64,000 nt of DNA, taken from IMG/VR virus record IMGVR_UViG_3300035034_002799, positions 1 through 64,000 of that record, one strand, 5' to 3'. Positions 22,945-39,451 of the stretch are shown in pieces. Position 1 is the stretch's first letter. The number at the start of each line of letters is the position of its first letter. The DNA comes from a virus. A program made the position numbers and the translations under genes. Below the pieces are notes generated by a model. The model searched no databases. It saw nothing but the letters and a program-made list of their open reading frames with translations, and had not been told where the DNA came from.

Positions 22945-23997
22945 ATGAAGTTACCGCAGTATATAGTTCATAATATTTGGTATCGAATAGATGTTAGTGC
23001 TAAGCCTATTAGAACTTCTAATGTTTTTGTTCATTCTGGAAAATGTCCATTGTGCGAAGATCACAAACACCGCATGTATATTAGGGAATACCCAGACTTT
23101 TATAATGTTAAATGTCATAACTGTGGGTACAATAGTAATATTGAAAGTTTTTTAAAAGACGAATACCCCGCTGAATATGATTCGCTTAAAGAGTATTTCA
23201 TTGAGTCTATTAGAACTAGAGAGCTTTTCAAAAAACCTGTTCATATCCCAAAAGAAGAAAAATCTAAAAGCGAATTCGAGATGACCGATATGCGTTTGAG
23301 GTTATACCTCAAGGAAAACGGTTTCCGCATTGTTCGTCCACAGAAGGACCGTAAATTAGAGATTTTACGCCAGAGAGTCTTGCGGTACCTAGAAGGAAGA
23401 AAGCTTCCTAAAACCGTATACAGTGACTTCTGGGTGATGACAGATGGTTTCCTTAGAGGTTACATTGCTATCCCATTTTACGATGAAAACAAGAGTCACA
23501 TAATTCACGTTCAAGGTCGTTTGTTTGCCGAACTAGGTAGATCAGACCCACAGAAATATTTGTTTTTAAAAGACCTTGATAGTCATGTTGTTATTGAATT
23601 ACCAGGCAAAGAAATTTGGGGTCAGTGGAGAGTTACTAATAAAGATACTGTAATTATATGTGAAGGTACTCTTGATGCTGCTGCGTTCGAAAAAGGAGTA
23701 GCTACTTGTGGTGCGACAATAGGTGATGGCTTTATTAGAGATATAAAAAGAAAATACCCAAATAGAATATGGTCTGTTGATAACTTTTGGAACGATAAAG
23801 AAGGAAAGAAACTTACTGAGAAACTTCTTCTTATGGGAGAGACTTGTTTTATATTACCTAATGATCCAAATATAAAAGATTCTAATGATTTGATTAAAAC
23901 TATAGATGGTGAATATATAACCTCTGAAATGTTAGATAAGTGTTCATATACTGGAAAACTCGGTTTAGCTAAATTACGTCTTCAAAATATGATATAA
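22945..23997 (+). CDS. 61: gp61-like DNA primase
   Basis: Zn ribbon CPLC...CHNCG, QGR, TOPRIM ICEGTLDA, DN, KDSND. Confidence 0.9.
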   Translation: MKLPQYIVHNIWYRIDVSAKPIRTSNVFVHSGKCPLCEDHKHRMYIREYPDFYNVKCHNCGYNSNIESFLKDEYPAEYDSLKEYFIESIRTRELFKKPVHIPKEEKSKSEFEMTDMRLRLYLKENGFRIVRPQKDRKLEILRQRVLRYLEGRKLPKTVYSDFWVMTDGFLRGYIAIPFYDENKSHIIHVQGRLFAELGRSDPQKYLFLKDLDSHVVIELPGKEIWGQWRVTNKDTVIICEGTLDAAAFEKGVATCGATIGDGFIRDIKRKYPNRIWSVDNFWNDKEGKKLTEKLLLMGETCFILPNDPNIKDSNDLIKTIDGEYITSEMLDKCSYTGKLGLAKLRLQNMI

Positions 23998-24023: not shown

Positions 24024-25154
24024 ATGAAAACAGCAATAATGATACCAGCTCGCTCAGGGAGTAAAAGAGTTCCGAATAAAAATTTAAGACTATTAAGTGG
24101 GAAACCACTAATTACTTACGTTATTGAAACTTGTCTTAAAACGGATTTAGACGTTTGGGTGAATACAGACGATTTAAAGATTATTAATATGTGCCAAGAT
24201 TTATTCCCAGAAGTAAATATCTTTAAAAGAAAACCTGAACTTTGTTCAGATACTGCTACTAATGATGATTTTATGTTGGATTTTATGAACAAAGAATTAC
24301 GTTACAGTCATTTTCTTCAAGTCCTACCAACTTCTCCATTTGTAACTTTAGATGAAATTAATAATTTTGTATTGGCTATGAAAAGTCACGATACCGTTGT
24401 TTCAGTAAAAAATGCTCAAATTGGATGTGTATATGGTGACAGACCAATTAACTTCTCCAAAGATAAAAAGAACCCACCCTCACAGGAAATGACTCCTATC
24501 GGAATTTATGCCACTTCTTTAATGGGTTGGGAACGAACCACTTTTATTGATAATATGAATGAACTAGGCTGTGCGTATCATGGTGGTTTAGGATCAATAA
24601 AGTATTTTGAGCTTAGTGGGTTCTCTACTATTGATATTGACAACGAATCAGATTTTTTACTAGCAGAAGCGGTTGCTCAATTTATCCCTTTTCAAAGTCT
24701 CTATAAAAAGTTCTACTATGAAGATGGACAGTATATCGACTATTTTGTACCCAGAGTACTGAAAGATGATGGTATTGAAAAAACCACAGAAGTTAAACCA
24801 AACCAGAGAGTGGTTAGTGTTACTAATTTAATGCAAGAAATGACAGACCAAGAAGCTTGGTATAAGACAATTGTAGACTCCGATAGTAATTCGTGTACAG
24901 TGGTTAATCAAATGCCAGGAGAAGGTAACCGCCGCCATTATCACGCTAAGTGGAATGAGTGGTGGTATATTATTAGAGGTCAATGGAGATTCGATATTGA
25001 AGATGAGTCATATGTCGTAAAAGCTGGTGACTTAGTGTTTATTGAAAAGGGGAATAAACATCAGATAACGGCAATTGGTAATACCATTGCTTCTAGGTTA
25101 GCAGTGTCAAGATATGACGTTGAACATATTTATGCGGAGAAGCCAATTAGATGA
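24024..25154 (+). CDS. CMP-ulosonate synthetase-like cytidylyltransferase (NeuA family) fused to a C-terminal cupin
   Basis: IPARSGSKRVPNKN, PTSPF, IDIDNESDF; cupin RHYHAKWNEWWYIIRG...GNKH. Confidence 0.85.
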   Translation: MKTAIMIPARSGSKRVPNKNLRLLSGKPLITYVIETCLKTDLDVWVNTDDLKIINMCQDLFPEVNIFKRKPELCSDTATNDDFMLDFMNKELRYSHFLQVLPTSPFVTLDEINNFVLAMKSHDTVVSVKNAQIGCVYGDRPINFSKDKKNPPSQEMTPIGIYATSLMGWERTTFIDNMNELGCAYHGGLGSIKYFELSGFSTIDIDNESDFLLAEAVAQFIPFQSLYKKFYYEDGQYIDYFVPRVLKDDGIEKTTEVKPNQRVVSVTNLMQEMTDQEAWYKTIVDSDSNSCTVVNQMPGEGNRRHYHAKWNEWWYIIRGQWRFDIEDESYVVKAGDLVFIEKGNKHQITAIGNTIASRLAVSRYDVEHIYAEKPIR

Positions 25155-25471
25155 GCTTTGTACATCACAAAACTAATGGTAAAAAACTAGGAGCGAAACT
25201 TCTCTTTGAGGGAGAAGACTATTCGGTCTATGTTATCAATGAAAAAGAAGGGAAAGTAATACCCAATCATATGCATAGTCATTGGGATGAATCATGGTAT
25301 ATTATTAATGGATTATATAGCATTACAATTGAAGGTAAGAATGTTTTTGCTTACCCAGGTGATTTTATTACAGTAGAGAGAAATACTCGACATTCTATTA
25401 GATGTGCATCAGATAATGCCACTCGTCTTGCTATTTTCAAAAAAGATGTGGGGATTGAGTATGAAGATTGA
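25151..25471 (+). CDS. Cupin-domain protein
   Basis: HMHSHWDESWYIING...PGDFITVERNTRH. Confidence 0.85.
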   Translation: MSFVHHKTNGKKLGAKLLFEGEDYSVYVINEKEGKVIPNHMHSHWDESWYIINGLYSITIEGKNVFAYPGDFITVERNTRHSIRCASDNATRLAIFKKDVGIEYED

Positions 25472-26168
25472 TTTTACGGGAAAGAGGGTTTTAGTTACTG
25501 GAGGAAGTAAGGGTATTGGTAAGAAACTCGTTGAAGATTTTAATAGTTTGGGTGCTGATGTGTATTGGACGAGTACTAAAAAAGTTTGCAACCTAAAGCA
25601 TTGGCAAGTTGATCTTACAAATTATAATGAAACTATAGAATTTATAAAATGGATTAAGACTATGGAATTTGATATTCTCATTAATAATGCAGGTACTAAT
25701 AAGATTGGACCTATTGAAGAATATGATATAAGGGACTATGAACAAATAATCAACCTAAACCTAACATCGTGTTTCAAAACAACACAAGCGGTTATTCCTC
25801 ACATGAAAGAAACTAGTTGGGGGCGAATTGTGAACATTACTTCAATTTCAAGTGAGATTAGTATGCCTCTTCGTTCTGCTTATTGTTCGAGTAAATTTGG
25901 CTTACTTGGTTTAACAAAAGCTTCTGCTGTCGAATTGGCTAAATATGGTATTTTAGTAAATTCAGTTGGACCAGGGGTTACTGAAACAGAATTAACAGTT
26001 GATGTACTTGGCAGAGAAAAGATGAACGAAATAGCATCTAATGTACCTATAGGTCGTTTAGCTACTGTTGATGATATTTCAAAAACAGTCATGTTTATGT
26101 CAAGTGATTTAAATACTTATATGGTAGGTCAAAACGTTATTGTTGATGGGGGGTATACTTGTGTTTAA
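25461..26168 (+). CDS. SDR family oxidoreductase
   Basis: TGGSKGIG, NNAG, YCSSK, PG, VDGG. Confidence 0.92.
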   Translation: MKIDFTGKRVLVTGGSKGIGKKLVEDFNSLGADVYWTSTKKVCNLKHWQVDLTNYNETIEFIKWIKTMEFDILINNAGTNKIGPIEEYDIRDYEQIINLNLTSCFKTTQAVIPHMKETSWGRIVNITSISSEISMPLRSAYCSSKFGLLGLTKASAVELAKYGILVNSVGPGVTETELTVDVLGREKMNEIASNVPIGRLATVDDISKTVMFMSSDLNTYMVGQNVIVDGGYTCV

Positions 26169-27210
26169 AGTTAAATCATATAAAGGGATATATAAGGTAG
26201 AAACTATTGATCATTTAACTTTCGATGATAATAAAGGTGATATTATAGTAGTTGATTCTTTTATTTGGGATCAATATATCTCAGTACTAAACCACATGGA
26301 TATATTTGATGCTTCTGTATATGTATTAGAAACAACCGAAGAAACTAAAACGTTAGAAGAATCACAAAAGTTAATAGATAAGATGATTCAGATTGGCTTT
26401 AATAAGAGTAATAAACTTATTGCTGTTGGTGGCGGTGTTATTCAAGACCTTGTATCGTTTACAGCCTCTATATATTCAAGAGGTGTTGATTGGGTGTTTT
26501 ATCCTACCACTCTTCTCGCTCAATGTGATAGTTGCATAGGAAGTAAGACTTCCATAAACTACAAAGGCAGTAAAAATAAGTTGGGAGGGTTTCATCCACC
26601 TAAAGAGATTTATATTTACCGAAAGTTTCTTGAAACACTTCCAGAGTCAGAGATAAAATCAGGCATTGGGGAAATGCTACATTATTTTTTATTGGACCAT
26701 AATTTTGACATATCAGAAAAGATGGTCAATGATGAAAATGTTTTAGAAAATATAGAAGAGTATGTAAAAGAAAGTCTCTCAATAAAAAAAGAAATGATTG
26801 AAAAAGACGAGTTTGATAAAGGAGAACGTAACTTATTTAATTACGGTCATACTTTTGGACACGCTATCGAATCAATCAGTAACTATGAAGTCAATCATGG
26901 ACAAGCAGTTACATTGGGAATGGAAATAGCTAATAGAATTTCATTAAAAAAAGAGTTAATCTCAAAAGATGTTTATAAAAGACTTAATAATATACTTATA
27001 AAAAATATACCTAACTATGGAATCAATAATAACGATAAATACGTACAAGCTCTTAATAACGATAAGAAAAACATTAGTAATAACTTAACATGTATATTAC
27101 TCACAAGTGAATATGCTATAAAAACAGAAATTGCCTACGAAGATGTAGTGGAGGTGATTAATGAGTTATTTGGGGATAATTTAAATTATCCCATAGATTT
27201 TATGATTTGA
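26161..27210 (+). CDS. AroB/3-dehydroquinate synthase-like sugar-phosphate cyclase
   Basis: GGGVIQD, PTTLLAQCDSCIGSKT, NYGHTFGHAIE, HGQAV, DKK. Confidence 0.88.
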   Translation: MFKVKSYKGIYKVETIDHLTFDDNKGDIIVVDSFIWDQYISVLNHMDIFDASVYVLETTEETKTLEESQKLIDKMIQIGFNKSNKLIAVGGGVIQDLVSFTASIYSRGVDWVFYPTTLLAQCDSCIGSKTSINYKGSKNKLGGFHPPKEIYIYRKFLETLPESEIKSGIGEMLHYFLLDHNFDISEKMVNDENVLENIEEYVKESLSIKKEMIEKDEFDKGERNLFNYGHTFGHAIESISNYEVNHGQAVTLGMEIANRISLKKELISKDVYKRLNNILIKNIPNYGINNNDKYVQALNNDKKNISNNLTCILLTSEYAIKTEIAYEDVVEVINELFGDNLNYPIDFMI

Positions 27211-27217
27211 GGTTTAT

Positions 27218-27997
27218 ATGAAAGTTTATAGTTTAACAAAGACACTAGATGATTACGTTGATTTTTATATTAACGACCCTTCCGAAGCGGAAGTTATTGT
27301 TGTTGGTGGGTCAAGTATTGATCTCGAAAAATTTCCTAAACTCAAATACATATTTAAGTGTGGAGTTGGGGTAGATAATATACCAGACCTTAAAGACACT
27401 GGTGTTAAATTGATTATGCCTTCCGAATTGACAAAAATCAAAATTTACGATGAGGTTTCTTCATTTGCTGTATTTTTAATTTTACAATCTCATTATAGAA
27501 AATTAGGTAATGTTTCTAAATGGGAAAAAGAAGAAAGAAAAACACTTTCTGATAAATCATGTCTAACAGTAGGGAGCATGGGTAATATTGGTAGATTTGT
27601 TTTTGACAAATTAGAAGATTTGTTTAAAGATAATGTTGGATTTGATGTGAATTCTTTTTTCCATACTACATTAGAAAAGGAAATGAAGTCGGCAGATATT
27701 GTAACCCTTCATTGTCCTCTTACTGATGGTAATAGAGGAATGATAAAAACAGAATGGCTTAAAGATGATGTGATATTGGTTAATACCGCAAGAGCAGAAT
27801 TAGTAGATGAAAATGAATTATATGAATTCCTAAAAAGTAACCCAAAGGCAACTGCCGCATTTGACGTATTTTGGGAAGAACCATATAAAGGTAAACTACT
27901 AGAACTTGATAACTTCATTGCCACACCACACGTTGCAAGTATGGGTGATGGTTTTCGTAAAGGTCTGTATAGAGACTTGATGGAGTTATTAAAATGA
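27218..27997 (+). CDS. D-isomer-specific 2-hydroxyacid dehydrogenase family protein
   Basis: GVGVDNI, GNIG, LHCPLT, NTARAELVDE, DVFWEEP, TPHVA. Confidence 0.88.
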   Translation: MKVYSLTKTLDDYVDFYINDPSEAEVIVVGGSSIDLEKFPKLKYIFKCGVGVDNIPDLKDTGVKLIMPSELTKIKIYDEVSSFAVFLILQSHYRKLGNVSKWEKEERKTLSDKSCLTVGSMGNIGRFVFDKLEDLFKDNVGFDVNSFFHTTLEKEMKSADIVTLHCPLTDGNRGMIKTEWLKDDVILVNTARAELVDENELYEFLKSNPKATAAFDVFWEEPYKGKLLELDNFIATPHVASMGDGFRKGLYRDLMELLK

Positions 27998-28962
27998 AAA
28001 TTGGGATAATTGGATATGGTAAAATAGGAAAGATTAGACATGAGGTTTGTAAACAACTAATACCTAATGCTGAATATATGATTTATGATCCAAACGAAGA
28101 AACCAATTGTAAGAGTAGTCAAGAAGTAATAGATAAGACAGACCACGTATTTATTTGCACGCCAAATTTTTTAACCTCTGATTTAACTATAAAATGTTTA
28201 ATGGCTGGTAAGAATATTTTTTGTGAAAAACCACCAGCATTAAATTATGATGAGTTGCTTGAAGTTAATTATGCATACAGTAAAAACCGTAATTTGACTT
28301 TATTGTATGGATTTAATCATCGCCAATACGACAGTATTCAAAAGATGAAAGAGTTTATTGACAGTCAAGAAACTGGAAAAATTTTATGGATGAGAGGAAG
28401 GTACGGAAAGGCAATGGGTGATCCTAATACTACAGGATGGAGAGCAGACCCTAAAAAATGTGGAGGTGGTATTCTTTTAGACCAAGGTATTCATATGTTA
28501 GATTTAATGAATTGGTTTGGTGGGGATTTTGATACAGTTCAATCCGTCATAACAAATAATCTTTGGGGTATTGAAGGAATAGAAGATAATGCATTTTTAA
28601 ATCTTTATAATAGCTCGGATAACATTTCAGCATCGCTCCATTCGACGATGATAGAATGGAGACATATATTTTCATTAGAAATTGTTTTAGAACGAGGATA
28701 TGTTGCTCTCAATGGTTTAAAGACTCCATCTGGGTCTTATGGTAAAGAAGAGTTAACCATATGTAAAGACAAACATTTTGATTCCGATACGTCCACTAAA
28801 GAAACTATAGAGTTTAAGAACAATGATACTTGGTACAAGGAAGTACAATTATTTTTTGATAGTATTTTATCTGGAAAAAATAAAACTAATATAGAAGACG
28901 CGCTTGAAGTAATGAGGTTGATTAAGGAGGCTTATAATGGTATTAATGAAAAGACTCCCTGA
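27994..28962 (+). CDS. Gfo/Idh/MocA family oxidoreductase
   Basis: GYGKIG, CEKP, GFNHR, GGGILLDQGIHMLD. Confidence 0.9.
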   Translation: MKIGIIGYGKIGKIRHEVCKQLIPNAEYMIYDPNEETNCKSSQEVIDKTDHVFICTPNFLTSDLTIKCLMAGKNIFCEKPPALNYDELLEVNYAYSKNRNLTLLYGFNHRQYDSIQKMKEFIDSQETGKILWMRGRYGKAMGDPNTTGWRADPKKCGGGILLDQGIHMLDLMNWFGGDFDTVQSVITNNLWGIEGIEDNAFLNLYNSSDNISASLHSTMIEWRHIFSLEIVLERGYVALNGLKTPSGSYGKEELTICKDKHFDSDTSTKETIEFKNNDTWYKEVQLFFDSILSGKNKTNIEDALEVMRLIKEAYNGINEKTP

Positions 28963-30169
28963 AGATTTTTATAAAGATAAAAAAGTAATTGTTATTGGAC
29001 CGTCAGAAGGTGCTCCTAAAGAAGTTGAACAAGTTAACCTAGATGATTATGATTATGTTATAAGACTAAACGATCATTTTTACGACTCTGATAAACATGG
29101 TCTAGGTAAAAGAACTGATATAATTTATCATTCTCTTCTTAGTGGTCAATATAATAAAGACCATCTAACTTATTTAATAAAACACAATATTAAACTTATT
29201 GCTAGATACTGTAGTCCTAATAAAAAAATTGATGGTTATTTAAGAATGTGTGGAGACGAAACCCCAGATTGGTATCTTTTTAATGAAGGAAGAGCCAAAC
29301 GCTGTCCTATTGTATTAAAGTGTTGTCCAAGTACTGGAATTCTTGCAATATATGACGCATTAACGGATGGCGCTAAAGAAGTAGCTGCTTTAGGTTTCGA
29401 TTTTTATGAAACATTTTACACTGAGCGTCCTATAGAAACTATGAAACCAAAATCAATAAGCCGTATTATAAATGGTAACCATCGCCCAGCGACCCAACTT
29501 AGAAATTTTACTAAATGGGCTATGTGTAATAGAAGATTCAATCCAATTGGTAGATTTAAAGAACTTTTTGAAAGGGAGAAAATGATCATGAGTGAAGAAA
29601 AATTATTTCTTAAAAATAGAGTACAGGATGCCGCTAGAGCATCGCTTAATTTAGAATTGACGAGCGCATATGAATTCGCAGAAAAGATTTTTGAATTGAG
29701 GAAATCAGGTAAGAAAGCTATTTTCATGGGTAATGGTGCTTCGTATACTATCGCAAACCACGCTGCTCTTGATTATATGAGCCAACTGGGTATTCAGACG
29801 TTATGCGCAGCAGACCAAGCAGTTCTTACTGCGTTTGCTAATGATTTTGGGTATGACCACGCCTTAGAAAGATACTGTAAGATTAACTATAAAAAAGGTG
29901 ATATTTTAGTTTGTGTTAGTTCAAGTGGTAACTCACCAAATGTAGTTAACGCTGCTAAATGGGTCAAAGCTCAAGGAGGAACTGTTGTTACGTTTACTGG
30001 ATTTGAGCAAGATAATAAATTATCTGAGATAGCAAGCAGTAACTTTTGGGTAAACAGTAAAGTATATAACATAGTTGAATCTGTTCATAATCTTTGGCTA
30101 GCTATGATTTGTGATCTTATGATTGAATGGATGGGTGATGGTGTAGGTACTCACGGTATTAATATATGA
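28937..30169 (+). CDS. GT29/sialyltransferase-like domain fused to a GmhA-like SIS sugar isomerase
   Basis: N-terminal VIVIGPS..DDYDYVIRLN..GKRTD..PSTG..GFDFY..H; C-terminal GNGAS, ANDFGY, SSSGNSPNV, FTGF. Confidence 0.75.
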   Translation: MVLMKRLPEDFYKDKKVIVIGPSEGAPKEVEQVNLDDYDYVIRLNDHFYDSDKHGLGKRTDIIYHSLLSGQYNKDHLTYLIKHNIKLIARYCSPNKKIDGYLRMCGDETPDWYLFNEGRAKRCPIVLKCCPSTGILAIYDALTDGAKEVAALGFDFYETFYTERPIETMKPKSISRIINGNHRPATQLRNFTKWAMCNRRFNPIGRFKELFEREKMIMSEEKLFLKNRVQDAARASLNLELTSAYEFAEKIFELRKSGKKAIFMGNGASYTIANHAALDYMSQLGIQTLCAADQAVLTAFANDFGYDHALERYCKINYKKGDILVCVSSSGNSPNVVNAAKWVKAQGGTVVTFTGFEQDNKLSEIASSNFWVNSKVYNIVESVHNLWLAMICDLMIEWMGDGVGTHGINI

Positions 30170-30210
30170 TAGACACGAACACATAAGATAAATTTTATAT
30201 CATCTAGATG

Positions 30211-30218
30211 TATAAATA
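30211..30218 (+). promoter_or_regulatory. T4-type late promoter TATAAATA
   Basis: Exact motif 22 nt upstream of 30241. Confidence 0.7.
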
Positions 30219-30240
30219 AAAGTTAATAGGTAGGTTAATT

Positions 30241-30444
30241 ATGAGTGACACATTAGAAACATTGGCAGAATACTCCAAAAACAAAAATGGTTTGATAATA
30301 GGACCATCTTCAAATGTTTTACAAGACGTTCGAGGAATTGATGTTGATGGATATGACGTAATTGTTAGATTGGACGGTCATTATAATAGGAAAGATAAAA
30401 GGCTTGTACCACTAGGTATATTTAGGAATTTATTAAATGACTAA
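30241..30444 (+). pseudogene. Truncated GT29-like paralog (N-terminal 67 aa only)
   Basis: LIIGPS..DGYDVIVRLDGH mirrors VIGPS..DDYDYVIRLNDH of the 28937 gene, then the ORF ends. Confidence 0.6.
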
Positions 30445-31188
30445 AAAATGTATTATAATGGGAAATGGTCCATCGCTTAATAATGTAAATATAGATGATT
30501 TACGTGGTGTTGATACATTCTCTTTTAATAGAGCTTATATAGCATATAAAGAATGGGATTTTTATCCTACATATTTTGCATGTATTGATTGTAGAACTTT
30601 TAGAACTATATATGACGACTTGAAAAATCTTATTGATTCTGATAACCCCATTAAGAAATATTTTACGGCTCCGTGGGGTAATATGATTAATGGGATCGAA
30701 CAAAAAAATAAAATCGTTCAGACTGATTATACAAATGTCAATGCGATAGAAGACTCATCTTTATGTTTTGGTCAGTACAGTGACTTGAGTTTTCCTAATT
30801 TATTCAAAGGTACATGTCCGTTAGATAATGTTAGTATATGGGCGGTTCAGTTTGCCTACTTAATGGGTTACACTCATGTTGGTATGGTTGGGGTTGATTG
30901 TCGTTATGTTCCTAGATCAGATGTTAGGCAAATTGAAGGGGGGGGGATTGTGAATTTACTTCTGATGAAGACCCAAATCATTTTAGATCAGATTATTTTG
31001 GTAAAGGGTCGATAACAACTCACCATCATTTGAATAATGGTGTGGCTGGTAATAATTTAGGTGTGTGGGAAAAGTTGAAAGCTAGTTATGTTAAACAAAA
31101 TGAATTTAAACTATATTCTTGCACTGAAGGCTCCAGAGTAAATAGGATTTTTAATTATCTACCACTTAAAAAATTATTGGAGTTATAA
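30437..31188 (+). pseudogene. Maf/DUF115-like (sialyltransferase-fold) transferase, frameshifted at a G9 tract (30938-30946)
   Basis: IMGNGPSL, FNRAY, GVDC; the alternative frame after the tract continues DPNHFRSDYFGKG...SCTEGSRVN to TAA at 31188. Confidence 0.75.
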
Positions 31189-31893: not shown

Positions 31894-33957
31894 ATGAAAA
31901 AAGCATTAATCACGGGGATCACAGGACAAGACGGTAGTTACTTAACGGAACTGTTACTGGATAAAGGATATGAAGTACATGGAATAGTCCGTAGGTCTTC
32001 GTCTTTCAATACAGGTAGGATTGATCATTTAGTATCTGATCCTAAATTGTTTAATAAAACGTTACATCTTCATTTTGGTGACCTAACAGACTCAACTAAT
32101 ATTGACGAATTAATACGAACTATAAAGCCAGATGAAATTTATAATTTGGGCGCTCAATCTCATGTCAAAGTATCCTTCGAAGTTCCAGAATATACGGCAG
32201 ATGCTAATGCTATGGGACCACTAAGAATTTTAGAAGCTATGAAGAAGCATTGCCCTAATTCTAAGTATTACCAAGCTTCAACCAGTGAGATGTACGGTGG
32301 CGTAACAGAAGAGATGCCTGAAAAGGGATATAATGAAAACTCTCCCTTCCATCCCAGATCACCATATGGTGTAGCAAAGCTCTATGGACATTGGATTGCT
32401 CGTAATTACCGAGAGTCTTATAATATGTTTATAGTTTCGTCTTGCCTGTTTAATCATGAATGTTTCGATTCCAATACCCCGATAACTATAAAGAACGGCG
32501 AAACAATAGATGTCGTTTATATGAGAGACTTCTTACCAGAAAGAAAAGATATATCTAAAGATAATAATATTCTAATCGGAGATTTTTCTAATGAAAATAT
32601 AGAAGTATGGAATGGTAGCGGATATACTAAATTAAAAACTATAACTAGGCGCAAAATAAAAACCTTAGATACTGAAAATAGAAACAAAGTGGTCTCTAAT
32701 ACTAGAAATGGCTCAGTAGTTACTACACCCCATCACAATTTTCTAATAGGTCAGAAAAAAATACCACAGAGACAACTCAACTTACATGATGAATTAGATC
32801 ATGGGGGGTTACCGAAACTAGGTAATCATATTAAAATCACTGAGGCGGAAGCTAAATTTTTAGGAATGTTAGTAGGAGACGGTCATATATGTTCATCTGG
32901 TCATGTTCGTTTGGCGAACCTAGATCACGGTGAAACCTTTAAAGATTTATGCCGATTTCTATTTCCAGTCTTCAATATCAGAGAAGCTAACTACGCATCT
33001 GGGTATGGTGACAATACTAGACATCATAACGTGTCAGGTATTAGCAGTCATTTAGGTAAATTTTATAGGTCAGAAATATACGACGAACGCACAAAACATA
33101 AAAAAGTACCAAAGCGTATATTAAATTCTTCTTTGGAAGTAAAAACAAAATTCTTGGAGGGATATTATCTTTGTGATGGGTTAAAAAAAGACAAATGTAC
33201 ATATAAATTTAAGTCTTTTAAATCCAACTCACCACTATTATGTCAGGGTCTTATTTTACTTATGAATGAGGTAGTTGAAGGTTTCAAATTTAATATTAAT
33301 ACTTTTGAACAAAACAGTAGATTGTATAATCAAGTAAACATACATAGTGATAAAAAAGGAGATAAAGGACTACATTTGATAAAAAATAATAAAGAACTTA
33401 AAAAAGAGATCATATTAGATGAGTCTAATTGTTTTGTATATGACATAGAAACTGAATGTGGTTACTTACAAGCTGGGGTAGGTTCTATGGTGTTGGCTAA
33501 CTCACCACGTAGAGGTGATACATTCGTAACCAAAAAGATTACAAACTGGTGTAAAAAATGGAAAATGAACCCCAATGAAACTGAGCCGCTTGAATTGGGT
33601 AATTTATACGCTTATCGTGATTGGGGTCACGCTAAGGACTTTATGAATTGTGTGTATTTAATGATGCAACAAGAAACTCCAGAAGACTTCGTAATAGCTA
33701 CTGGTGAAACATACACCGTTAAGGATTTCGTTGAAGAGTGCTTTAATCAATTGGGAGAATCAATAACTTGGAAAGGTGAAGGTATTAATGAAGTAGGACT
33801 GGTAAATAATAAAACAGTAGTAAAAATCAATCCTAAATACTTCCGTCCTGCTGAGGTGGATATTTTGTTGGGTGATTCATCAAAGGCTCGTAAGAAGCTT
33901 GGATGGACCCCTGAGTATAATTTTAAAACGCTTGTTAAAGATATGTTGGATAACTAA
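31894..33957 (+). CDS. gmd: GDP-mannose 4,6-dehydratase with an intein
   Basis: [39 protein letters not shown]|intein|SPRRG, RDWGHA, FRPAEVD. Confidence 0.95.
32461..33501 (+). mobile_element. LAGLIDADG intein in Gmd (347 aa)
   Basis: Starts CFDSNT; block B TPHH; LGMLVGDG and [10 protein letters not shown]; VYDIET; ends VLAN before Ser; removing it restores NHESPRRG. Confidence 0.92.
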
Positions 33958-34535
33958 TGACTGAACACGAAAGATGGCTTAAAGATAACGGTGAAGAAAA
34001 GCGTTTAACATACCCATTAAACACCAAAAGTCTTTACGTGGATTTTGGTGCTTATGACGGTAAATTCGCTAGAAAGATTTATGATAAATTCAAATGTCAG
34101 ATAATTGCTTATGAGCCTATTCCTAAATTTTTGGATTTATGTGAGAAAAACTTAGAAGGTACAGATGCTACTGTTTTGCCTTATGGTGTTGGTAAAGAAA
34201 ATATCCAATTATATGTAGAAGATACTAATGATGCCACCCATCTTTTTTCTAAAGGTAATATTAAAATTGAAGTTAGAGATGTTTATAATCTTATAGGTAA
34301 AGATGATATAGACCTTCTAAAAATTAATATCGAAGGTGCTGAATATGATGTCTTAGAGAGAATGATCGAAACTGATTTATTAAAAAACGTTCGTTATCTT
34401 CAAGTTCAGTTTCATAAATTTCCTCATGTTGAACGACCAGTGGAAAGAAGACAAAAGATTTGGGAAGAACTTCAAAAAACTCATAAATGTCAATGGTCTT
34501 ATGATTTTGTTTGGGAGAGTTGGGAGAGAAAATGA
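33957..34535 (+). CDS. FkbM family methyltransferase
   Basis: VDFGAYDG, YEP, LLKINIEGAEY, QVQFH. Confidence 0.88.
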   Translation: MTEHERWLKDNGEEKRLTYPLNTKSLYVDFGAYDGKFARKIYDKFKCQIIAYEPIPKFLDLCEKNLEGTDATVLPYGVGKENIQLYVEDTNDATHLFSKGNIKIEVRDVYNLIGKDDIDLLKINIEGAEYDVLERMIETDLLKNVRYLQVQFHKFPHVERPVERRQKIWEELQKTHKCQWSYDFVWESWERK

Positions 34536-35458
34536 ATAAAGGCGATGTTATTTATGTAACTGGTTCTACTGGTCTGGTAGGTAGTGCTATTATGAGAAAA
34601 CTAAAAGAAGAAGGATTTACTCAAGTTTATGGAGCTTCAAGAGCTAATGGTTGTGATTTGGGAGATGTTAACTATGTAAAAGACATTCTATGGCATGTAC
34701 GTCCAAAATACATATTCCATTGTGCGTCTATGGTTGGTGGAATTGGTAAAAACATTAAATACCCCGCCGACTTTGGTTTAACTAATTCCCGAATAAACAA
34801 TAATGTTATTGAATGGGCTAGGGTTGTTAATGCTAAACTGTTATTTCTAGGTTCTTCTTGTATCTACCCCAGAGAATGCCCACAACCAATGAAAGAAGAA
34901 TATCTTATGACTGGTCCATGTGAACCAACCAATGAGATGTATGCTCTATCTAAGATTTATGGCATTAAAATGTGTCAGGCGTATCGTAAACAATACGGTA
35001 ATAATTTTATTACTTGTCAGCCTGCTAATATATATGGGGTAGGGGATCACTTCGATCCTGAAAACGCTCATGTTGTGGGTTCTCTTATTAGTAAATTTCA
35101 CAAAGCAAAGATCGAGAAGACACCTGTTGAACTTTGGGGTGATGGTTCAGCAATGAGAGAATTATTATATGTTGATGATGTTGCTGATGCTTGTTTGTTT
35201 CTTATGAACAATTATGACGGGGAAGAATTAATCAATGTTGGAACTGGTATTGATATTACTATAAAAGAATTAGCAAATATGATCAAGAAGGTTGTCGGGT
35301 ATGATGGGCACATTCAATGGGATGTTCTAAAGCCTAATGGAATGCCCCGCAAAGTTCTAGATGTAGCAAAAATTCATTCAATGGGATGGGAACATAAATT
35401 TGACCTTGACAAAGGAATAGAAAAGACTTATAATTGGTATTTGGGGAATATAATATGA
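34532..35458 (+). CDS. fcl: GDP-L-fucose synthase / ColC-like epimerase-reductase
   Basis: GSTGLVG, VGGI, LGSSCIYP, YALSK, WGDGSAMRE. Confidence 0.9.
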   Translation: MNKGDVIYVTGSTGLVGSAIMRKLKEEGFTQVYGASRANGCDLGDVNYVKDILWHVRPKYIFHCASMVGGIGKNIKYPADFGLTNSRINNNVIEWARVVNAKLLFLGSSCIYPRECPQPMKEEYLMTGPCEPTNEMYALSKIYGIKMCQAYRKQYGNNFITCQPANIYGVGDHFDPENAHVVGSLISKFHKAKIEKTPVELWGDGSAMRELLYVDDVADACLFLMNNYDGEELINVGTGIDITIKELANMIKKVVGYDGHIQWDVLKPNGMPRKVLDVAKIHSMGWEHKFDLDKGIEKTYNWYLGNII

Positions 35459-36288
35459 TTAACGTTATTATGTATAGTTTTGACCGAGCTTGTCAGTTAG
35501 ATTTAGCGTTAAGGTCAATAAAAGATCACTTTGCGGAATGGCAAAGTTGTACATGGACTATTATTGTAAAGTGTAGTAACGATGAATATTCAAAAGGATA
35601 TTCAAGAGTTAGACAACTTCATCCTGAAAGGCAATTTGAATTTGTTCATGAGATTAATTTTAGAGATGATACCCGCCGAGCTTTTAATAAACCGAATAAA
35701 CCCTATACTACATGGATGATGGACGATGATGCGTTTATTAGACCGTTCTCATTACAGGATCAACAATTTAAGGATTTCGCAAATAATCAAGAGATCACTA
35801 CTTTAAGTTGTAGACTAGCACCATATATGAACGAATGTTACACACAATCAAGAAAAGCATTAGTTCCTGATCTTACCGAAAATTTAACATGGAACTGGCG
35901 TAATTCATCCAAATTAGATTTGTTTCATGGATACCCTACTGATTGGGGGTATCCTATGTCAATTGCTAGTTTCCATATTTTTAGAACATATCAAATAGCA
36001 AGTACTGTTAATAAAGTAATATTTAAAGCACCTAATTCTCTTGAAGGTCAGTTAGCTCTTAATCCTCCTGCTGGTGACTATATGATGTGTTACCCAAGAG
36101 CTTTAAATATCAACATTCCTATTAATAAAGCCCAAACTGAAAATGGTAATCGTTTTGGTAATAAATCTCATCTTCAACAAGATGTCCTCAACCGAGAATT
36201 TATAGTAGGAAAAAGATTATCTACTGATAAAGTATATGGAGCAGTCACACCTAGCCCTCATTATGAATTAGATTTGGAGTTTGAATGA
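35455..36288 (+). CDS. GT-A fold glycosyltransferase
   Basis: SFDRACQL start, MDDD (DxD), WGYPMS motif seen in phage GT2-like proteins. Confidence 0.65.
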   Translation: MINVIMYSFDRACQLDLALRSIKDHFAEWQSCTWTIIVKCSNDEYSKGYSRVRQLHPERQFEFVHEINFRDDTRRAFNKPNKPYTTWMMDDDAFIRPFSLQDQQFKDFANNQEITTLSCRLAPYMNECYTQSRKALVPDLTENLTWNWRNSSKLDLFHGYPTDWGYPMSIASFHIFRTYQIASTVNKVIFKAPNSLEGQLALNPPAGDYMMCYPRALNINIPINKAQTENGNRFGNKSHLQQDVLNREFIVGKRLSTDKVYGAVTPSPHYELDLEFE

Positions 36289-37448
36289 AATACCCACTTG
36301 CAACTGAAACATGGACAGACATCGAAAAAAAGGTAGCTAAAGATGTCATTGATAGTGGCATGTGTACTATGGGTAATATAACAAAAGAATTTGAGGCTAA
36401 ATTTGCTGAATTTTTCGGAAGCAAATATGCAGTATTTAGTAACTCTGGTTCTTCAGCTAACCTATTGGCAGTAGCTGCATTAGTTCATAAATATAATTTA
36501 CAACGAGGAGATGAAGTCATTGTCCCTGCGGTATCTTGGAGTACTACATATTATCCATTACAACAGTATGGTTTGAAATTAGTTTTTGTAGACGTAAACG
36601 AAAACGATTTTAATATTGACATTGACGAAGTAACAAAAGCATTAACACACAAAACGAGATTAATTGTTGCAGTTAATCTTCTTGGTATGTCATGTAATTT
36701 TGGTGCGCTTGAGCATATTTGTAAATCTAAAAACATTATCCTTATGGAAGATAATTGTGAGTCAATGGGTGCTACATATGAAGATAAGTATTGTGGTGCG
36801 ATTGGTGAAATAGGAACTTTTAGTACTTTTTTCTCACATCATATATGTACTGTCGAAGGTGGTGTTACAGTAACTAATGATGAGGAACTTTATCATTTAA
36901 TGCTTTCAATTCGTTCTCATGGATGGACTCGACATCTACCAGACAATAATCATATTGAAAATAAAACGGGTGATTCTTTTTATGATTCTTACCGTTTTGT
37001 GTTGCCTGGGTATAATCTTAGAAATAATGACATTTTTGCTGCTATAGGTTTAGAACAACTTAAGAAATTACCTGAATTAGTTTCTAAAAGAATAGAAAAT
37101 TGGGATTATATGGTTTGTTCACTACAATATATCAACGTTAGTAATTTAAAACTTCAATGGACCAATGACGACCGCAGTAGTTCGTCTTGGTTTGGTTTCG
37201 GTTTCATTTATGATGGGGATAGAGACTCTTTAGTTAAAACCCTCACTGAAGAAGGTATTGATACCCGTCCTATCGTAGCTGGTAACTTTTGCAAAAACCC
37301 TGTGATTCAATATATGAATCACAGGATTGTAGGTGACTTACCTATTGCTAATTTAATTGATAAACAAGGTTTCTTTGTTGGTAATAACGGAAGTTCCTTG
37401 AGTTCTCAAATTGATCATTTTATTAATATTATTTCGAAAAATGCTTGA
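36285..37448 (+). CDS. colD: ColD-like GDP-4-keto-6-deoxymannose 3-dehydratase (DegT/DnrJ family)
   Basis: YPLA..TW N-terminus, NSGSSANLL, EDNCES, and STFFSHHICTVEGG with His in place of the PLP-binding Lys. Confidence 0.8.
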   Translation: MKYPLATETWTDIEKKVAKDVIDSGMCTMGNITKEFEAKFAEFFGSKYAVFSNSGSSANLLAVAALVHKYNLQRGDEVIVPAVSWSTTYYPLQQYGLKLVFVDVNENDFNIDIDEVTKALTHKTRLIVAVNLLGMSCNFGALEHICKSKNIILMEDNCESMGATYEDKYCGAIGEIGTFSTFFSHHICTVEGGVTVTNDEELYHLMLSIRSHGWTRHLPDNNHIENKTGDSFYDSYRFVLPGYNLRNNDIFAAIGLEQLKKLPELVSKRIENWDYMVCSLQYINVSNLKLQWTNDDRSSSSWFGFGFIYDGDRDSLVKTLTEEGIDTRPIVAGNFCKNPVIQYMNHRIVGDLPIANLIDKQGFFVGNNGSSLSSQIDHFINIISKNA

Positions 37449-38307
37449 TTATAAACTCAGCAAAGTTAGCTTCGCCAAGTAACTTATCTTGTGCTACTTT
37501 TGTAGACTTGTTATTTACGAACTGGTCGGTATTATAGTAAGCATTTTTTATTGTATTAAATATATCATTTACGTCATCACTAAGCTTATAGTGAGTCTCT
37601 TCTCCAAAAACATGATGACAGTGGTTAGCTCCCCAATATAAAGGAACACAATCACATATGATAGGATCAACAAATTTCTCAGTTATCCAATAAGGCATTC
37701 TTTTATTTTCAATAGCGATATTCATTTTATAATCTCTAAAGGCTAAAGTCTTATCTGCTATTTCTCCTTTAACTCTTCCGTCTAGTGGATAAAGTTCACG
37801 ACTACCTCTCCCATAAACATGAATATCCATATCGCTTGCTAAAATCTTTTTGATCAAACCATGGCGAAGATTGTGACCAGGTAAGAATTTCTTATTAGAT
37901 GCAATAATACTCATTTTCTGCGGTTTTTCTGGATTAGTATATCCAGAAAAATCTTTTACTAAAGGGATGTTTGGTAAGAATGTATACCATTCTTTTATAT
38001 TAGGACCGTTCATATAACGAAGATCGTAAACAAAATAGGTTCCTACATGTTTATCAACCCACTCTCTATATTTGTTCATATCAATAAGTTCATATACTTC
38101 TTGATGAAAACCCACCACGTTTTCTTTAGGTACTTTAAGTTGTGGGAGTTTACCATGATTGAAAATACACGCATGGGTATAGCTTTCATCATCAACAACC
38201 GTAATATTTTTGTAAGTAGTATTACCTAATCCCCAAGATTTAAATGCACCTTTAGCTACAGTAGGAGTGGTATAATCTGAAAATATTTTAAGCCTTATTT
38301 CTTGCAT
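37429..38307 (-). CDS. GT10 (alpha-1,3/4-fucosyltransferase-like) glycosyltransferase
   Basis: YKMNIAIEN..YWITEKFVDPIICDCVPLYWGA motif. Confidence 0.82.
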   Translation of the reverse strand: MQEIRLKIFSDYTTPTVAKGAFKSWGLGNTTYKNITVVDDESYTHACIFNHGKLPQLKVPKENVVGFHQEVYELIDMNKYREWVDKHVGTYFVYDLRYMNGPNIKEWYTFLPNIPLVKDFSGYTNPEKPQKMSIIASNKKFLPGHNLRHGLIKKILASDMDIHVYGRGSRELYPLDGRVKGEIADKTLAFRDYKMNIAIENKRMPYWITEKFVDPIICDCVPLYWGANHCHHVFGEETHYKLSDDVNDIFNTIKNAYYNTDQFVNNKSTKVAQDKLLGEANFAEFIIKHFSK

Positions 38308-39439: not shown

Positions 39440-39451
39440 TATTACTCCGTT

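Follow-up and report, generated by a model that had tools for sequence, protein, structure and literature searches.

A hydroxy variant of a widespread phage cassette, most likely for a CMP-activated sialic-acid-like sugar

What is made by seven sugar-enzyme genes that a phage carries directly 3' of its DNA primase gene? The question is raised by an operon of a large uncultured T4-like lake phage, found in a stretch of 64,000 nucleotides (the window; positions 1 to 64,000 of IMG/VR record IMGVR_UViG_3300035034_002799). The original prediction, made from the letters alone, described a self-contained route from a heptose phosphate to an unusual CMP donor. This interpretation is partly supported by our analysis: the gene families and the absence of a synthase stand and a CMP donor is implied, whereas a self-contained route is doubtful. 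Judging from the sequences, this is most likely an auxiliary glycan operon whose cassette, in its hydroxy version, would supply an acidic sugar that resembles sialic acid and is activated with CMP.

The operon genes and their neighbours

The seven genes are co-directional and mostly overlapping (Table 1); overlaps occur at four of the six junctions, and gaps of 7 and 26 bases separate the genes at the other two. All predicted assignments were reproduced, using Pfam, NCBIfam and, for the GT29-like domain, a profile, and every NCBIfam match of the operon proteins to a specific (equivalog) model scores below the cut-off.

Table 1. Coordinates and assignments of the operon genes and adjoining features in the window
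Feature	Position	Strand	Assignment	Supporting match or remark
primase	22945-23997		DNA primase, upstream of the operon	PHROG phrog_47, 128.8 bits
g1	24024..25154	+	NeuA/KdsB-family cytidylyltransferase (~residues 1-220) with C-terminal cupin (~290-360)	
g2	25151..25471	+	small stand-alone cupin	PF07883, 41.1 bits
g3	25404..26168	+	classical SDR, FabG/3-hydroxybutyrate-dehydrogenase-like	adh_short, 157 bits
g4	26140..27210	+	AroB-related NAD/metal enzyme, TIGR04425 clade	
g5	27218..27997	+	short D-2-hydroxyacid dehydrogenase, nearest PGDH/PdxB/glyoxylate-reductase groups	
g6	27994..28962	+	Gfo/Idh/MocA oxidoreductase	PF22725, 76 bits; PF01408, 49.8 bits
g7	28937..30169	+	GT29-like domain (~residues 10-215) with GmhA-like SIS isomerase (~245-400)	
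g8	30241..30444	+	short remnant (67 aa) of a further GT29-like gene	retains just the N-terminal nucleotide-binding motif
g9	30437..31188	+	Maf/MptE-like, flagellin-glycosyltransferase-type gene	directly downstream

In g1, Pfam recognizes CTP_transf_3 (PF02348, 71.1 bits) and a C-terminal Cupin_2 domain (PF07883, 50.3 bits). The NCBIfam matches, PseF (67 bits) and KdsB models (at most 50 bits), lie far under the equivalog cut-offs, and the top PDB sequence matches are NeuA and CMP-NeuAc synthetase. Such a fusion, of about 370-390 aa, is common to most type-A viral loci, and other loci have the cupin on its own, encoded by a gene of about 138 aa. The slot of g2 holds homologues with 48-53% identity in three relatives (L164-L166); none was detected in a fourth, L163. 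The probable start of g3 is the Met at 25461, and the alignment of its relatives begins at residue 20.

Most likely, g4 derives from dehydroquinate synthase (DHQS) of the shikimate pathway and has been recruited to a new role. It matches DHQ_synthase (124 bits) and DHQS_C (105 bits) in Pfam and, in NCBIfam, TIGR04425 at 376.6 bits (cut-off 400) and aroB at 268 bits (cut-off 305); the former family is named 'AroB-related putative sugar phosphate phospholyase (cyclizing)'. A database twin (P0001) of 349 aa, starting at 26161, is 100% identical. Compared with 54 true AroB sequences, the enzyme falls in a clade of its own, marked by clade-specific substitutions. By sequence, its nearest solved structure is a true DHQS (3clh, 183 bits), followed by DOIS (120), EEVS (90) and DDGS (83). 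It keeps 37 of the 43 AroB-invariant columns, including a Lys and an Arg (K216 and R230 of the window's enzyme), and all 76 clade members retain the DAHP-type pocket. At K181H, His replaces an AroB-invariant Lys; the same change is present in 26 of 26 aminotransferase-type enzymes, and Lys is found in seven of the ten dehydrogenase-type enzymes. At least 175 stretches of viral contigs code for relatives of the AroB-like enzyme. The bacterial members of the clade reach 481-482 bits on TIGR04425 and come from genomes that hold an ordinary aroB besides.

The two dehydrogenases are assigned to broad families. Pfam identifies 2-Hacid_dh_C (PF02826) in g5 at 99.7 bits, and the NCBIfam scores for PGDH (86 bits) and PdxB (42.6 bits) are both under the cut-off. 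All nine homologues aligned with it share the catalytic Arg and His (R192, H238) and the NAD glycines, and in the phage forms the N-terminal domain is shorter by about 45 residues. For g6, the best NCBIfam match is iolG (inositol 2-dehydrogenase, 85 bits), with weaker ones to levoglucosan dehydrogenase and the xylose 1-dehydrogenase Gfo6, all far under the cut-offs; its identity to the bacterial cassette homologues is 36-47%.

The C-terminal part of g7 matches gmhA (67 bits) and, over residues 247-355, SIS_2 (45 bits). Its best PDB sequence match is GmhA (E 9e-15), and all 15 of its best PDB sequence matches are phosphoheptose isomerase or DiaA. The N-terminal domain was missed by Pfam when the g7 protein of the window was searched alone. 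A profile built from this domain and 21 viral homologues matched eight PDB sequences, all of them GT29 sialyltransferases (best match 4mps, E 1.2e-7), and the homologue from locus L086 reaches 28.2 bits on PF00777 (cut-off 23). A structural model of mediocre quality (pLDDT 67) had GT29 enzymes as its top Foldseek matches (E 3e-3). Relatives L163-L166 and 27 viral loci encode the two parts separately, and no second GT29-like/SIS fusion was found beyond the g7 ORF, which contains internal Met codons at residues 216 and 218. An identical fused ORF, without a single differing letter, is present on X2 record 14, a contig of a second lake sample.

Downstream, g8 has no Pfam match; in BLASTP it shares 34% identity with g7 over residues 10-53 of both proteins (E 3.9e-10). 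The reading frame of g9 is broken in the present assembly at a run of nine G (30938-30946), and the truncated ORF scores 26.5 bits on PF01973, under the cut-off of 34.6. Viral homologues follow one frame to about 30937 and another from 30949 to 31158, and the second-sample contig has two fewer G and an intact frame.

The cassette in other phages and in bacteria

A search for the same gene set in other phages and in bacteria, suggested in the original prediction, was productive. Gene content and order are kept in five metagenome relatives (L163-L166 and L168) at 55-91% identity, and the cassette also occurs in bacterial glycan islands (L003-L007, L009 and L073). In 70 of 80 viral loci and in seven of eight bacterial cassette loci, the gene immediately upstream of the AroB-like one encodes an SDR; none of 56 true-aroB loci has an SDR gene in this place. 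Because of this pairing and the order kept in the five relatives, the arrangement exceeds chance. The neighbours of the cassette are glycosyltransferase and GDP-sugar genes, without aminoglycoside-type genes, and in one bacterial locus a flagellin gene adjoins it. The cassette is therefore not unique to the window; it is widespread yet uncharacterised. In agreement with the expectation of an undescribed system, our search of the literature and curated families found no paper on the cassette and no family naming its pathway.

No NeuB/KdsA-type synthase had been seen in the window, and this holds for the whole record of 85,206 bases, in which PF03102, PF00793 and PF03328 (NeuB, KdsA/DAHP-synthase and HpcH aldolase) gave no match. 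Since the record is only 42% complete according to CheckV, a synthase could sit elsewhere in the phage genome. The same three enzymes are absent from the annotated genes within 10 kb of the bacterial loci L005, L006, L007 and L009.

Relatives differ in how the sugar may be modified. Among 41 viral loci having both cytidylyltransferase and SIS, 29 carry a class-III aminotransferase and lack the Gfo and 2-hydroxyacid dehydrogenases, while keeping the SIS and the AroB-like enzyme. Aminotransferase and dehydrogenase pair are nearly mutually exclusive, occurring together in one locus (L148). We regard the window as the hydroxy variant because g5 and g6 occupy the place of the class-III aminotransferase of most relatives. 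Overall, 42 of the 80 viral loci keep a GmhA-like SIS, 64 have a DegT aminotransferase and 32 a class-III one. The SIS is about 190-212 aa long wherever an AroB-like gene is present in the loci examined. Sister cassettes with a GT29-like gene, a long GmhA-like SIS and a cytidylyltransferase, without AroB-like and SDR genes, make up eight of 47 GT29-anchored loci. Their long SIS has an extra C-terminal DxDG-type domain, which its motif suggests is HAD-like; it has no Pfam match, and its best PDB match has an E-value of 0.13. None of the eight long-SIS loci also holds an AroB-like gene. In 33 of 80 loci, the SDR/AroB-like pair stands without cytidylyltransferase and SIS, beside a TPP enzyme and an HpcH aldolase or NeuB.

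A proposed route and its competitors

Three independent sialic-type parts, the cytidylyltransferase, the GT29-like domain and the Maf/MptE-like gene, imply the CMP donor and sialyltransferase-type transfer of the original prediction, and because of them we adopt a CMP-ulosonate logic. In general terms, the cassette probably makes an acidic sugar activated with CMP, and the AroB-like enzyme together with the SDR probably removes a phosphate on the way. We are more tentative, with confidence short of even, about a specific seven-step chain from sedoheptulose-7-P, whose substrate, step order, product and acceptor we infer from family membership and synteny. Entry from a heptose phosphate is plausible in view of the GmhA-like SIS matches.

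The SIS of g7 would convert sedoheptulose-7-P to an aldoheptose-7-P, g6 would oxidise C1 to an aldonate, and g5 would oxidise C2. The resulting hept-2-ulosonate 7-phosphate would be a keto acid resembling DAHP, obtained without a PEP-condensing synthase. With its DAHP-type pocket kept, g4 may then oxidise the adjacent hydroxyl and eliminate the phosphate. Its obligate partner g3 would reduce the resulting keto or enone intermediate, and the two cupins, that of g2 and that at the C-terminus of g1, could act as epimerase or isomerase, giving a 7-deoxy sugar acid. Activation by the NeuA-like domain of g1 would yield a CMP-sugar, to be transferred by the GT29-like domain and the putatively phase-variable g9 to a candidate acceptor such as a virion or host-surface protein, or a glycan. 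For the targets named in the original prediction (virion proteins, phage DNA or the host surface), the one clue from gene context is the bacterial locus next to a flagellin gene. The separate clade of g4, the SDR pairing, the conserved gene set, the catalytic residues kept in g5 and the eight sister cassettes that have the long SIS but neither AroB-like nor SDR gene speak for this explanation. The K181H change, common to all 26 aminotransferase-type enzymes, counts against it, as do the motif-based HAD reading of the long SIS, the equivalog scores under cut-off and the incompleteness of the record.

The route may not be self-contained, since the two dehydrogenases that would make it so are missing from most cassettes of sister phages. 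Aminotransferase-type loci cannot obtain the acid by the second and third steps, and therefore a host keto-acid phosphate may start the route everywhere. A rather unlikely, though the strongest, competitor builds on this: the same cassette logic would act on a host-made 3-deoxy-2-ulosonate phosphate, most simply shikimate-pathway DAHP, which the AroB-like enzyme and SDR would turn into a deoxy keto-acid sugar. In this version, g5 and g6 would only tailor hydroxyl stereochemistry, sister phages would install an amine by the class-III aminotransferase instead, and the end product would be a truncated seven-carbon Kdn/sialic-acid analogue. The pocket conserved throughout the clade, the missing synthase in phage and bacterial loci, the 29 loci without dehydrogenases and the near exclusion of the two modification types all agree with it. 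However, the phosphate-binding GmhA-like SIS of 42 viral loci would have no role on DAHP, the 2-hydroxyacid dehydrogenase is hard to fit to a sugar that must retain its 2-keto group, and the product formed from DAHP is expected to cyclise to dehydroquinate.

Cyclisation is a difficulty for our preferred chain as well. When a pyranose keto acid undergoes DHQS-type elimination, aldol cyclisation to a carbocycle should follow, so the reduction by g3 requires g4 to escape it. If g4 does not, the product would be a carboxylated cyclitol, in the form of a carbasugar resembling dehydroquinate or quinate, reduced or aminated by the SDR, Gfo enzyme or aminotransferase and then CMP-linked as a carbocyclic ulosonic-acid mimic, or otherwise used. 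The complete DHQS catalytic set, the word 'cyclizing' in the TIGR04425 name and the inositol dehydrogenases of the Gfo family, with iolG as best match of g6, are in line with this, and a DHQS-like enzyme beside DegT or class-III aminotransferases echoes aminocyclitol pathways, which pair DOIS with an aminotransferase. Nevertheless, GT29- and Maf-type transferases act via an oxocarbenium-like state dependent on the ring oxygen, a tertiary carbocyclic centre beside a carboxylate would serve very poorly as donor, and the genomic company is of the glycan type, not the aminoglycoside type; we judge this outcome quite improbable.

Two unrelated modules lying side by side are less probable still. One (cytidylyltransferase, SIS and GT29-like parts) would handle a host Kdo/Kdn-like sugar, and the other (AroB-like enzyme, SDR and dehydrogenases) would make a separate small molecule or substituent. 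Each set does occur alone, in the eight and 33 loci mentioned above, but the window and its relatives have the genes of both sets interleaved and coupled in translation, and the long SIS with HAD-like extension never accompanies an AroB-like gene in the loci examined. That g4 is an ordinary aroB, an auxiliary metabolic gene boosting host aromatic amino-acid synthesis, is hardly credible despite its high similarity to true DHQS and conserved catalytic residues, given its score under the aroB cut-off, its separate clade with specific substitutions, the absence of other aro genes, its constant embedding among glycan genes and the separate aroB retained by cassette-bearing bacteria.

Comparison with known sugar pathways

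For the preferred chain, the Epd/PdxB route, from aldose-P through aldonate-P to 2-keto-aldonate-P, is a precedent. K216 and R230 of g4 presumably correspond to the DHQS residues holding the DAHP carboxylate. At two sites that we take to be equivalent, a review gives Leu/Asp or Glu/Ala for the S7P cyclases, where g4 has Lys/Arg. The phosphate elimination proposed for g4 would stand in for the hydrolytic phosphatase of Kdo/Kdn-type pathways.

The operon and its genomic setting

Seven co-directional open reading frames, g1 to g7, follow immediately after the primase gene (see the table below); four of their six junctions overlap, the remaining two are gaps of 7 and 26 bases, and all seven encode small soluble enzymes. 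The gene calls of the original prediction, namely a cytidylyltransferase joined to a cupin (g1), a second cupin (g2), an SDR (g3), an AroB-like enzyme (g4), a 2-hydroxyacid dehydrogenase (g5), a Gfo-type oxidoreductase (g6) and a GT29-like domain fused to an SIS domain (g7), were all reproduced with Pfam and NCBIfam, the GT29-like half of g7 through profile homology. No g1-g7 protein attains any NCBIfam equivalog cut-off. The prediction had also stated that the window holds no NeuB/KdsA-type synthase, and this was confirmed: the KdsA/DAHP-synthase (PF00793), NeuB (PF03102) and HpcH aldolase (PF03328) families gave no match across the whole 85,206-base record, which is 42% complete according to CheckV.

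The window has a G+C content of 31-38% and carries T4-type replication genes (family-B DNA polymerase, DnaB-like helicase, primase, ribonucleotide reductase, NAD ligase, baseplate hub). A scan for sigma-70 promoters and terminators gave counts at chance level (50 promoters versus 45.3 expected; 6 terminators versus 3.3). Downstream of the transferase gene g9, a GDP-sugar island extends to about 40.9 kb; its gmd gene is uninterrupted in the relatives L167 and L170.

The stretch is present nearly word for word in two lake-water metagenomes from separate studies, of which one is its probable source; two salt-lake runs (X3 and X4) contain only parts of it. Contigs in two metagenome runs (X1 and X2) appeared to join position 26122 to 31090, skipping 4967 bases. 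This joint was rejected, its shorter side being only 22 letters; the long contigs that carry it share just two other short regions with the stretch, 24249-24272 and 26482-26534, and it is probably a chance or conserved-word match in another organism. Among 50,697 phage records, blastn with the 6.1-kb stretch found no match, and tblastn with g4 found only aroB-like genes of 30-37% identity, mostly in host-contaminated records. The cassette, as we call the gene set around the AroB-like enzyme, is known from no cultured phage, and by tblastn with g4 a close relative is absent from the phage GenBank collection.

Features of the operon, its surroundings and its sister loci
Feature	Location	Description
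Primase gene	22945-23997	
g1-g7	24024-30169	plus strand
g8	30241-30444	67 aa; truncated paralogue of the GT29-like N-terminus of g7; 34% identity over 44 residues, E 3.9e-10
g9, Maf/MptE-like transferase	30437-31188	out of frame at a G9 run, 30938-30946
gmd, GDP-mannose 4,6-dehydratase	31894-33957	687 aa; family matched in two separated stretches; gene with an insertion
Second sugar island	33957-40946	FkbM methyltransferase, fcl-like epimerase/reductase, 284-aa protein without assigned family, DegT
Second sugar island, minus-strand part	33957-40946	GT10-like gene and three GT2/GT7C-like transferases
Ribonucleotide reductase ORF	44162-47524	1120 aa; PHROG matched in two stretches; may carry an insertion
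Sister cassettes	L174, L179, L182, L183, L185, L186, L188, L189	GT29-like gene, 322-338-aa SIS protein and 216-aa cytidylyltransferase

The AroB-like enzyme and its gene neighborhood

On TIGR04425 ('AroB-related putative sugar phosphate phospholyase (cyclizing)'), the enzyme encoded by g4 falls narrowly short of the cut-off of 400 with 376.6 bits; on the aroB model TIGR01357 it scores 268.1 bits, below the equivalog cut-off of 305. Cassette homologues in two bacterial genomes (G002 and G003) reach 481-482 bits on TIGR04425, and both genomes keep an ordinary aroB elsewhere. In a FastTree phylogeny of 130 sequences from the fetched loci, which comprises AroB and cassette enzymes only, two clades emerge: one unites g4 with 75 cassette enzymes (all viral and bacterial cassette copies), the other holds the 54 ordinary AroB proteins. 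The reading of g4 as an ordinary auxiliary aroB gene was rejected, since the aroB cut-off is missed, the clade is separate and bacteria with the cassette retain an aroB of their own.

The 54 AroB proteins define 43 invariant columns, of which g4 retains 37; 95% or more of the 76 clade members share 32 of them. Six invariant residues are altered in g4 (G66T, G106S, G135S, K181H, V220I and L233F). The clade as a whole differs from AroB by a G to Q change in the NAD loop and by the changes S to C, Q to F/Y, Q to P and E to I/Q/L, and the subclade of g4 additionally has an invariant Lys replaced by His. By comparison with DHQS structures, g4 presumably retains the metal ligands, the residues that bind the phosphate and the Lys/Arg pair that binds the carboxylate of DAHP. 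K216 and R230 of g4 are invariant in all 76 clade members, and we take their columns to be those of the EEVS and DDGS fingerprint sites, as the numbering of those sites matches that of the DHQS Lys/Arg pair with a constant offset. On that presumed column equivalence, g4 does not show the Lys/Arg replacement expected of an S7P cyclase of the EEVS/DDGS style. The fingerprint sites are Leu267/Asp281 in EEVS and Glu254/Ala268 in DDGS, according to a review (PMC10666671). In sequence comparison with solved structures in the PDB, g4 scores 112-183 bits with true DHQS, 120 with DOIS, 90 with EEVS and 83 with DDGS. From these comparisons, the most probable substrate of g4 is a phosphorylated keto acid resembling DAHP, which the enzyme would oxidize and strip of its phosphate by elimination in the manner of DHQS.

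Scanning viral contigs by pattern returned at least 175 stretches with an AroB-like relative, and 80 loci were examined. In 70 of these 80 viral loci the AroB-like gene is directly preceded by the SDR gene, an arrangement present in 0 of 56 bacterial loci with an ordinary aroB. Cytidylyltransferase and SIS genes are both present in 41 of the 80; 29 of these 41 carry a class-III aminotransferase, two a Gfo or 2-hydroxyacid dehydrogenase gene, and ten neither, several of the ten having DegT instead. The window version has two dehydrogenases and no aminotransferase, and the gene set proved not to be confined to it. With gene order kept and the primase before it or nearby, it occurs in the metagenome contigs L163, L164, L165/L166 and L168 at 55-91% amino-acid identity, and it is also found in bacteria, namely in Verrucomicrobiae, Syntrophaceae, Undibacterium, Geopsychrobacteraceae and Zetaproteobacteria MAGs. 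In the Geopsychrobacteraceae locus the order is PseB-like, DegT, Gfo, SIS, cytidylyltransferase, SDR, AroB-like, 2-hydroxyacid dehydrogenase, methyltransferase, GT2, GT61 and Maf-like. A flagellin gene lies 3 kb upstream of this cassette; it is the only such locus, with no flagellin gene within reach of the other bacterial cassettes. A conserved protein of about 640 residues, without assigned function, is encoded at the other bacterial loci alongside methyltransferases, aminotransferases and a second cytidylyltransferase. Neither the bacterial loci nor the viral ones of the aminotransferase type have a condensing synthase or aldolase among their annotated neighbors. Among 151 Campylobacterales genomes sampled, none has a TIGR04425 member above the cut-off.

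A second set of 47 loci, from a search anchored on the GT29-like domain, contains eight sister cassettes with no SDR and no AroB-like gene. The N-terminal part of their long SIS proteins matches GmhA by profile (E 1.7e-5), and the extra 110 C-terminal residues contain DxDG and IDD, motifs characteristic of HAD phosphatases. The three long SIS proteins tried gave no Pfam match, single-sequence searches gave no PDB match, and a profile of the C-terminal part found nothing significant in the PDB (best E 0.13); on its motifs, this part is predicted to be HAD-like. None of the loci examined has both the long SIS protein and an AroB-like gene, which fits the AroB-like enzyme and SDR in the role of the phosphatase. 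This pattern supports, without proving, a replacement in which elimination and reduction take the place of the phosphatase hydrolysis of the simpler cassette.

Several further loci vary this theme. In L105, L108, L124-L132 and L135-L162, the SDR/AroB-like pair stands without cytidylyltransferase and SIS beside an acetolactate-synthase-like TPP enzyme. Among the viral loci outside the 41, 33 carry the TPP enzyme together with an HpcH-type aldolase (24) or with a NeuB homologue and a protein of about 320 aa without assigned function (9); possibly these are related pathways that have a keto-acid synthase of their own. The cassette of L173 combines GT29, cytidylyltransferase-cupin, aminotransferase, SIS and methyltransferase genes without the SDR/AroB-like pair, and a fumarylacetoacetate-hydrolase-family gene is located at L173:8696-9313. 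Beside aminotransferase-type cassettes, a split transketolase-like pair and a B12-binding radical SAM enzyme are encoded (L085:2187-3291 and L087:5352-7070), and these neighbors hint at branched or C-methylated sugars.

Transfer genes, proposed route and alternatives

The g7 protein has 410 residues, and its C-terminal half is a GmhA-like SIS domain. This part scores 45.4 bits on SIS_2 versus a Pfam cut-off of 27 and 67.1 bits on the GmhA model TIGR00441, below the equivalog cut-off of 209; its best PDB sequence matches are GmhA (E 9e-15). The N-terminal half matched nothing in Pfam, including PF00777 (GT29), at E <= 0.01. A free-standing homologue of it is present in 27 viral loci, and the one in L086 reaches 28.2 bits on PF00777, whose gathering cut-off is 23. 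A profile of 22 sequences, the g7 domain and 21 homologues, found eight PDB matches, all of them mammalian GT29 sialyltransferases (ST6Gal1, ST3Gal1, ST6GalNAc2 and ST8Sia3 only), with a best E of 1.2e-7. The alignment covers positions 43-136 of the profile, where the CMP-binding sialylmotif L lies. The structural model of the domain is of modest quality (pLDDT 67.3), and its top Foldseek matches, ST8SiaIII, ST6GalNAc2 and ST3Gal1, are weak (E >= 3e-3, TM 0.3-0.46). The domain is accepted as GT29-like by homology, at which level the original call is borne out, and its transferase activity is putative.

The GT29-like and SIS parts are separate genes in the nearest relatives, and the fusion was seen nowhere else among the loci examined; candidate fusions in L177, L178 and L202 were ruled out, as those proteins match only the GT29-like part. 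An assembly slip does not explain the g7 fusion, since a second lake sample has a contig that spans it with zero differences. The fragment g8 is probably a remnant of the rearrangement that also gave the fusion. In g9, the frameshift-truncated ORF scores 26.5 bits on PF01973 (gathering score 34.6), and the Maf-like homologue in the bacterial locus L009 reaches 41.9 bits; viral Maf-like homologues align across the frameshift. The contig from the second lake has two fewer G in the run, which restores the frame. This length difference could reflect phase variation or, since only contigs and no reads were compared, a homopolymer error. The variable run in this neighboring transferase gene suggests on/off switching of attachment, for which it may serve as the switch.

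Concerning the remaining enzymes, g1 belongs to PF02348 (71.1 bits versus a cut-off of 22.6) and reaches no equivalog, with 67 bits on PseF (cut-off 205.7) and 31-50 on the KdsB models (155-281). The g5 protein is a short D-2-hydroxyacid dehydrogenase (PF02826, 99.7 bits) whose catalytic R192 and H238 are invariant across 10 sequences; it attains no equivalog cut-off, scoring 42.6 bits on PdxB (cut-off 434).

The NeuA-like cytidylyltransferase, the GT29-like domain and the Maf-like gene together point to a CMP-linked 2-keto acid sugar. The reading preferred for the window is a self-contained route. In the first step, the GmhA-like domain of g7 would convert sedoheptulose-7-P to aldoheptose-7-P; in the second, the Gfo enzyme g6 would oxidize C1; and in the third, the PdxB/PGDH-like g5, with its catalytic Arg and His intact, would oxidize C2 to give hept-2-ulosonate 7-phosphate. 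The AroB-like g4 would then eliminate the phosphate, the SDR g3 and the cupins would complete a 7-deoxy sugar acid, g1 would activate it with CMP, and the GT29-like and Maf-like enzymes would transfer it to an acceptor. The aldonate steps have a precedent in Epd and PdxB of pyridoxal phosphate synthesis, PdxB being a 2-hydroxyacid dehydrogenase that acts on a phospho-aldonate. The route explains all seven genes as well as the missing synthase.

The route is weakest in that the aminotransferase-type sisters lack the second and third steps yet keep the SIS protein and the same pocket, so that the substrate may instead be host-made DAHP throughout. As a second weak point, DHQS-type chemistry normally terminates in a carbocycle, and the AroB-like enzyme may thus cyclize its substrate; such a product, however, would be a poor donor for sialyl-type transferases. 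Carried to its end, cyclization would give a CMP-activated 'carba-ulosonic acid', a hydroxylated quinate-like ring transferred or displayed by the GT29-like enzyme. We consider this quite improbable; if true, no carbasugar donor of the sialic-acid type would have preceded it, and phages and bacteria would possess a new kind of non-hydrolysable surface cap. An aminoglycoside-type aminocyclitol cluster was rejected on gene context.

Should the 7-deoxy route be true, a shikimate-pathway enzyme would have been recruited into nucleotide-sugar biosynthesis, where the sugar phosphate is removed by elimination, and its products would form a new family of short deoxy sugars that resemble sialic acid and come in hydroxy and amino variants. 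Such sugars would be made by many aquatic phages and by diverse bacteria, which would attach them via sialyltransferase-type enzymes, and large phages would seem to remodel a surface glycan, of the virion or of the infected cell. The known chemical space of CMP-activated sugars would be widened and new enzymes for glyco-engineering gained. According to a preprint (10.64898/2026.04.20.719630), mass spectrometry already detects unassigned CMP-linked keto acids in environmental bacteria.

Comparison with known systems

As far as literature searches could show, no nucleotide-sugar pathway with an AroB-clade enzyme has been described. Searches on TIGR04425, or on dehydroquinate synthase or sugar phosphate cyclase with cytidylyltransferase, Maf, glycosylation island, nonulosonic acid or phage sialyltransferase, found nothing relevant.

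The CMP-Kdo pathway (KdsD, KdsA, KdsC, KdsB) similarly begins with an SIS-type isomerase and ends with a KdsB/NeuA-family cytidylyltransferase, and its phosphorylated keto-acid intermediate must shed the phosphate, which recalls the sister cassettes, where the isomerase is fused to a HAD-like domain. In contrast, the operon has no KdsA, its SIS domain is GmhA-like (SIS_2) rather than KdsD-like, the AroB-like enzyme and SDR would occupy the phosphatase slot, two dehydrogenases and two cupins are extra, and a GT29-like transferase stands in place of a Kdo transferase. With the sialic acid/Kdn pathway, which has 9-phosphate intermediates and GT29 enzymes, the operon shares NeuA-type CMP activation and a GT29-like domain. 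It differs in that the record holds no NeuB-family synthase, the GT29-like domain is very divergent and the backbone is likely of seven carbons instead of nine.

In deoxysugar biosynthesis, an NDP-hexose 4,6-dehydratase is followed by a ketoreductase, an aminotransferase or a cupin epimerase. The roles proposed here are alike: oxidation would assist an elimination beside the ring, an SDR ketoreductase or an aminotransferase would act next, and the cupins would serve as epimerases. The leaving group, however, would be phosphate on a free keto acid rather than water on an NDP-sugar, and the eliminating enzyme is of the DHQS family and not of the SDR family.

AroB itself (EC 4.2.3.4; TIGR01357) has the same fold and domains as g4, which shares the metal, phosphate and carboxylate positions among its retained invariant residues; unlike AroB, g4 has an obligate SDR neighbor, and the shikimate context is absent. 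The aminocyclitol pathways of EEVS, DDGS and DOIS likewise employ a DHQS-superfamily enzyme outside the shikimate pathway, often beside an aminotransferase and oxidoreductases. In contrast to EEVS and DDGS, g4 keeps the Lys/Arg pair that is replaced there, according to PMC10666671 and on the presumed column equivalence, and it sits with a CMP-transferase and sialyl-type transferases, not with natural-product genes.

The legionaminic and pseudaminic acid islands of flagellin modification also combine an SDR, a NeuA-like cytidylyltransferase, an oxidoreductase and a Maf/MptE-like transferase, and the bacterial cassette locus L009 adjoins a flagellin gene and PseB/PseC-like genes. Their Ptm trio consists of the SDR PtmA, the cytidylyltransferase LegF/PtmB and the oxidoreductase PtmF, as given in Table 5 of PMC4481668. 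Homologues of LegI/PseI, LegG and PtmE are absent here, and g3 and g6 are likened to PtmA and PtmF by family only.

Overall, the system would work like the Kdo, Kdn and sialic-acid pathways, by way of an isomerase, a phosphorylated keto acid, dephosphorylation, CMP activation and transfer. Membership in each known pathway fails, given the lack of a synthase, the lack of an equivalog score and the presence of an AroB-clade enzyme, and the literature searches found no characterized match for the operon. To this picture the window adds a phage dehydrogenase (hydroxy) variant with a direct bacterial counterpart, a GT29::SIS fusion and a link to a length-variable transferase gene.
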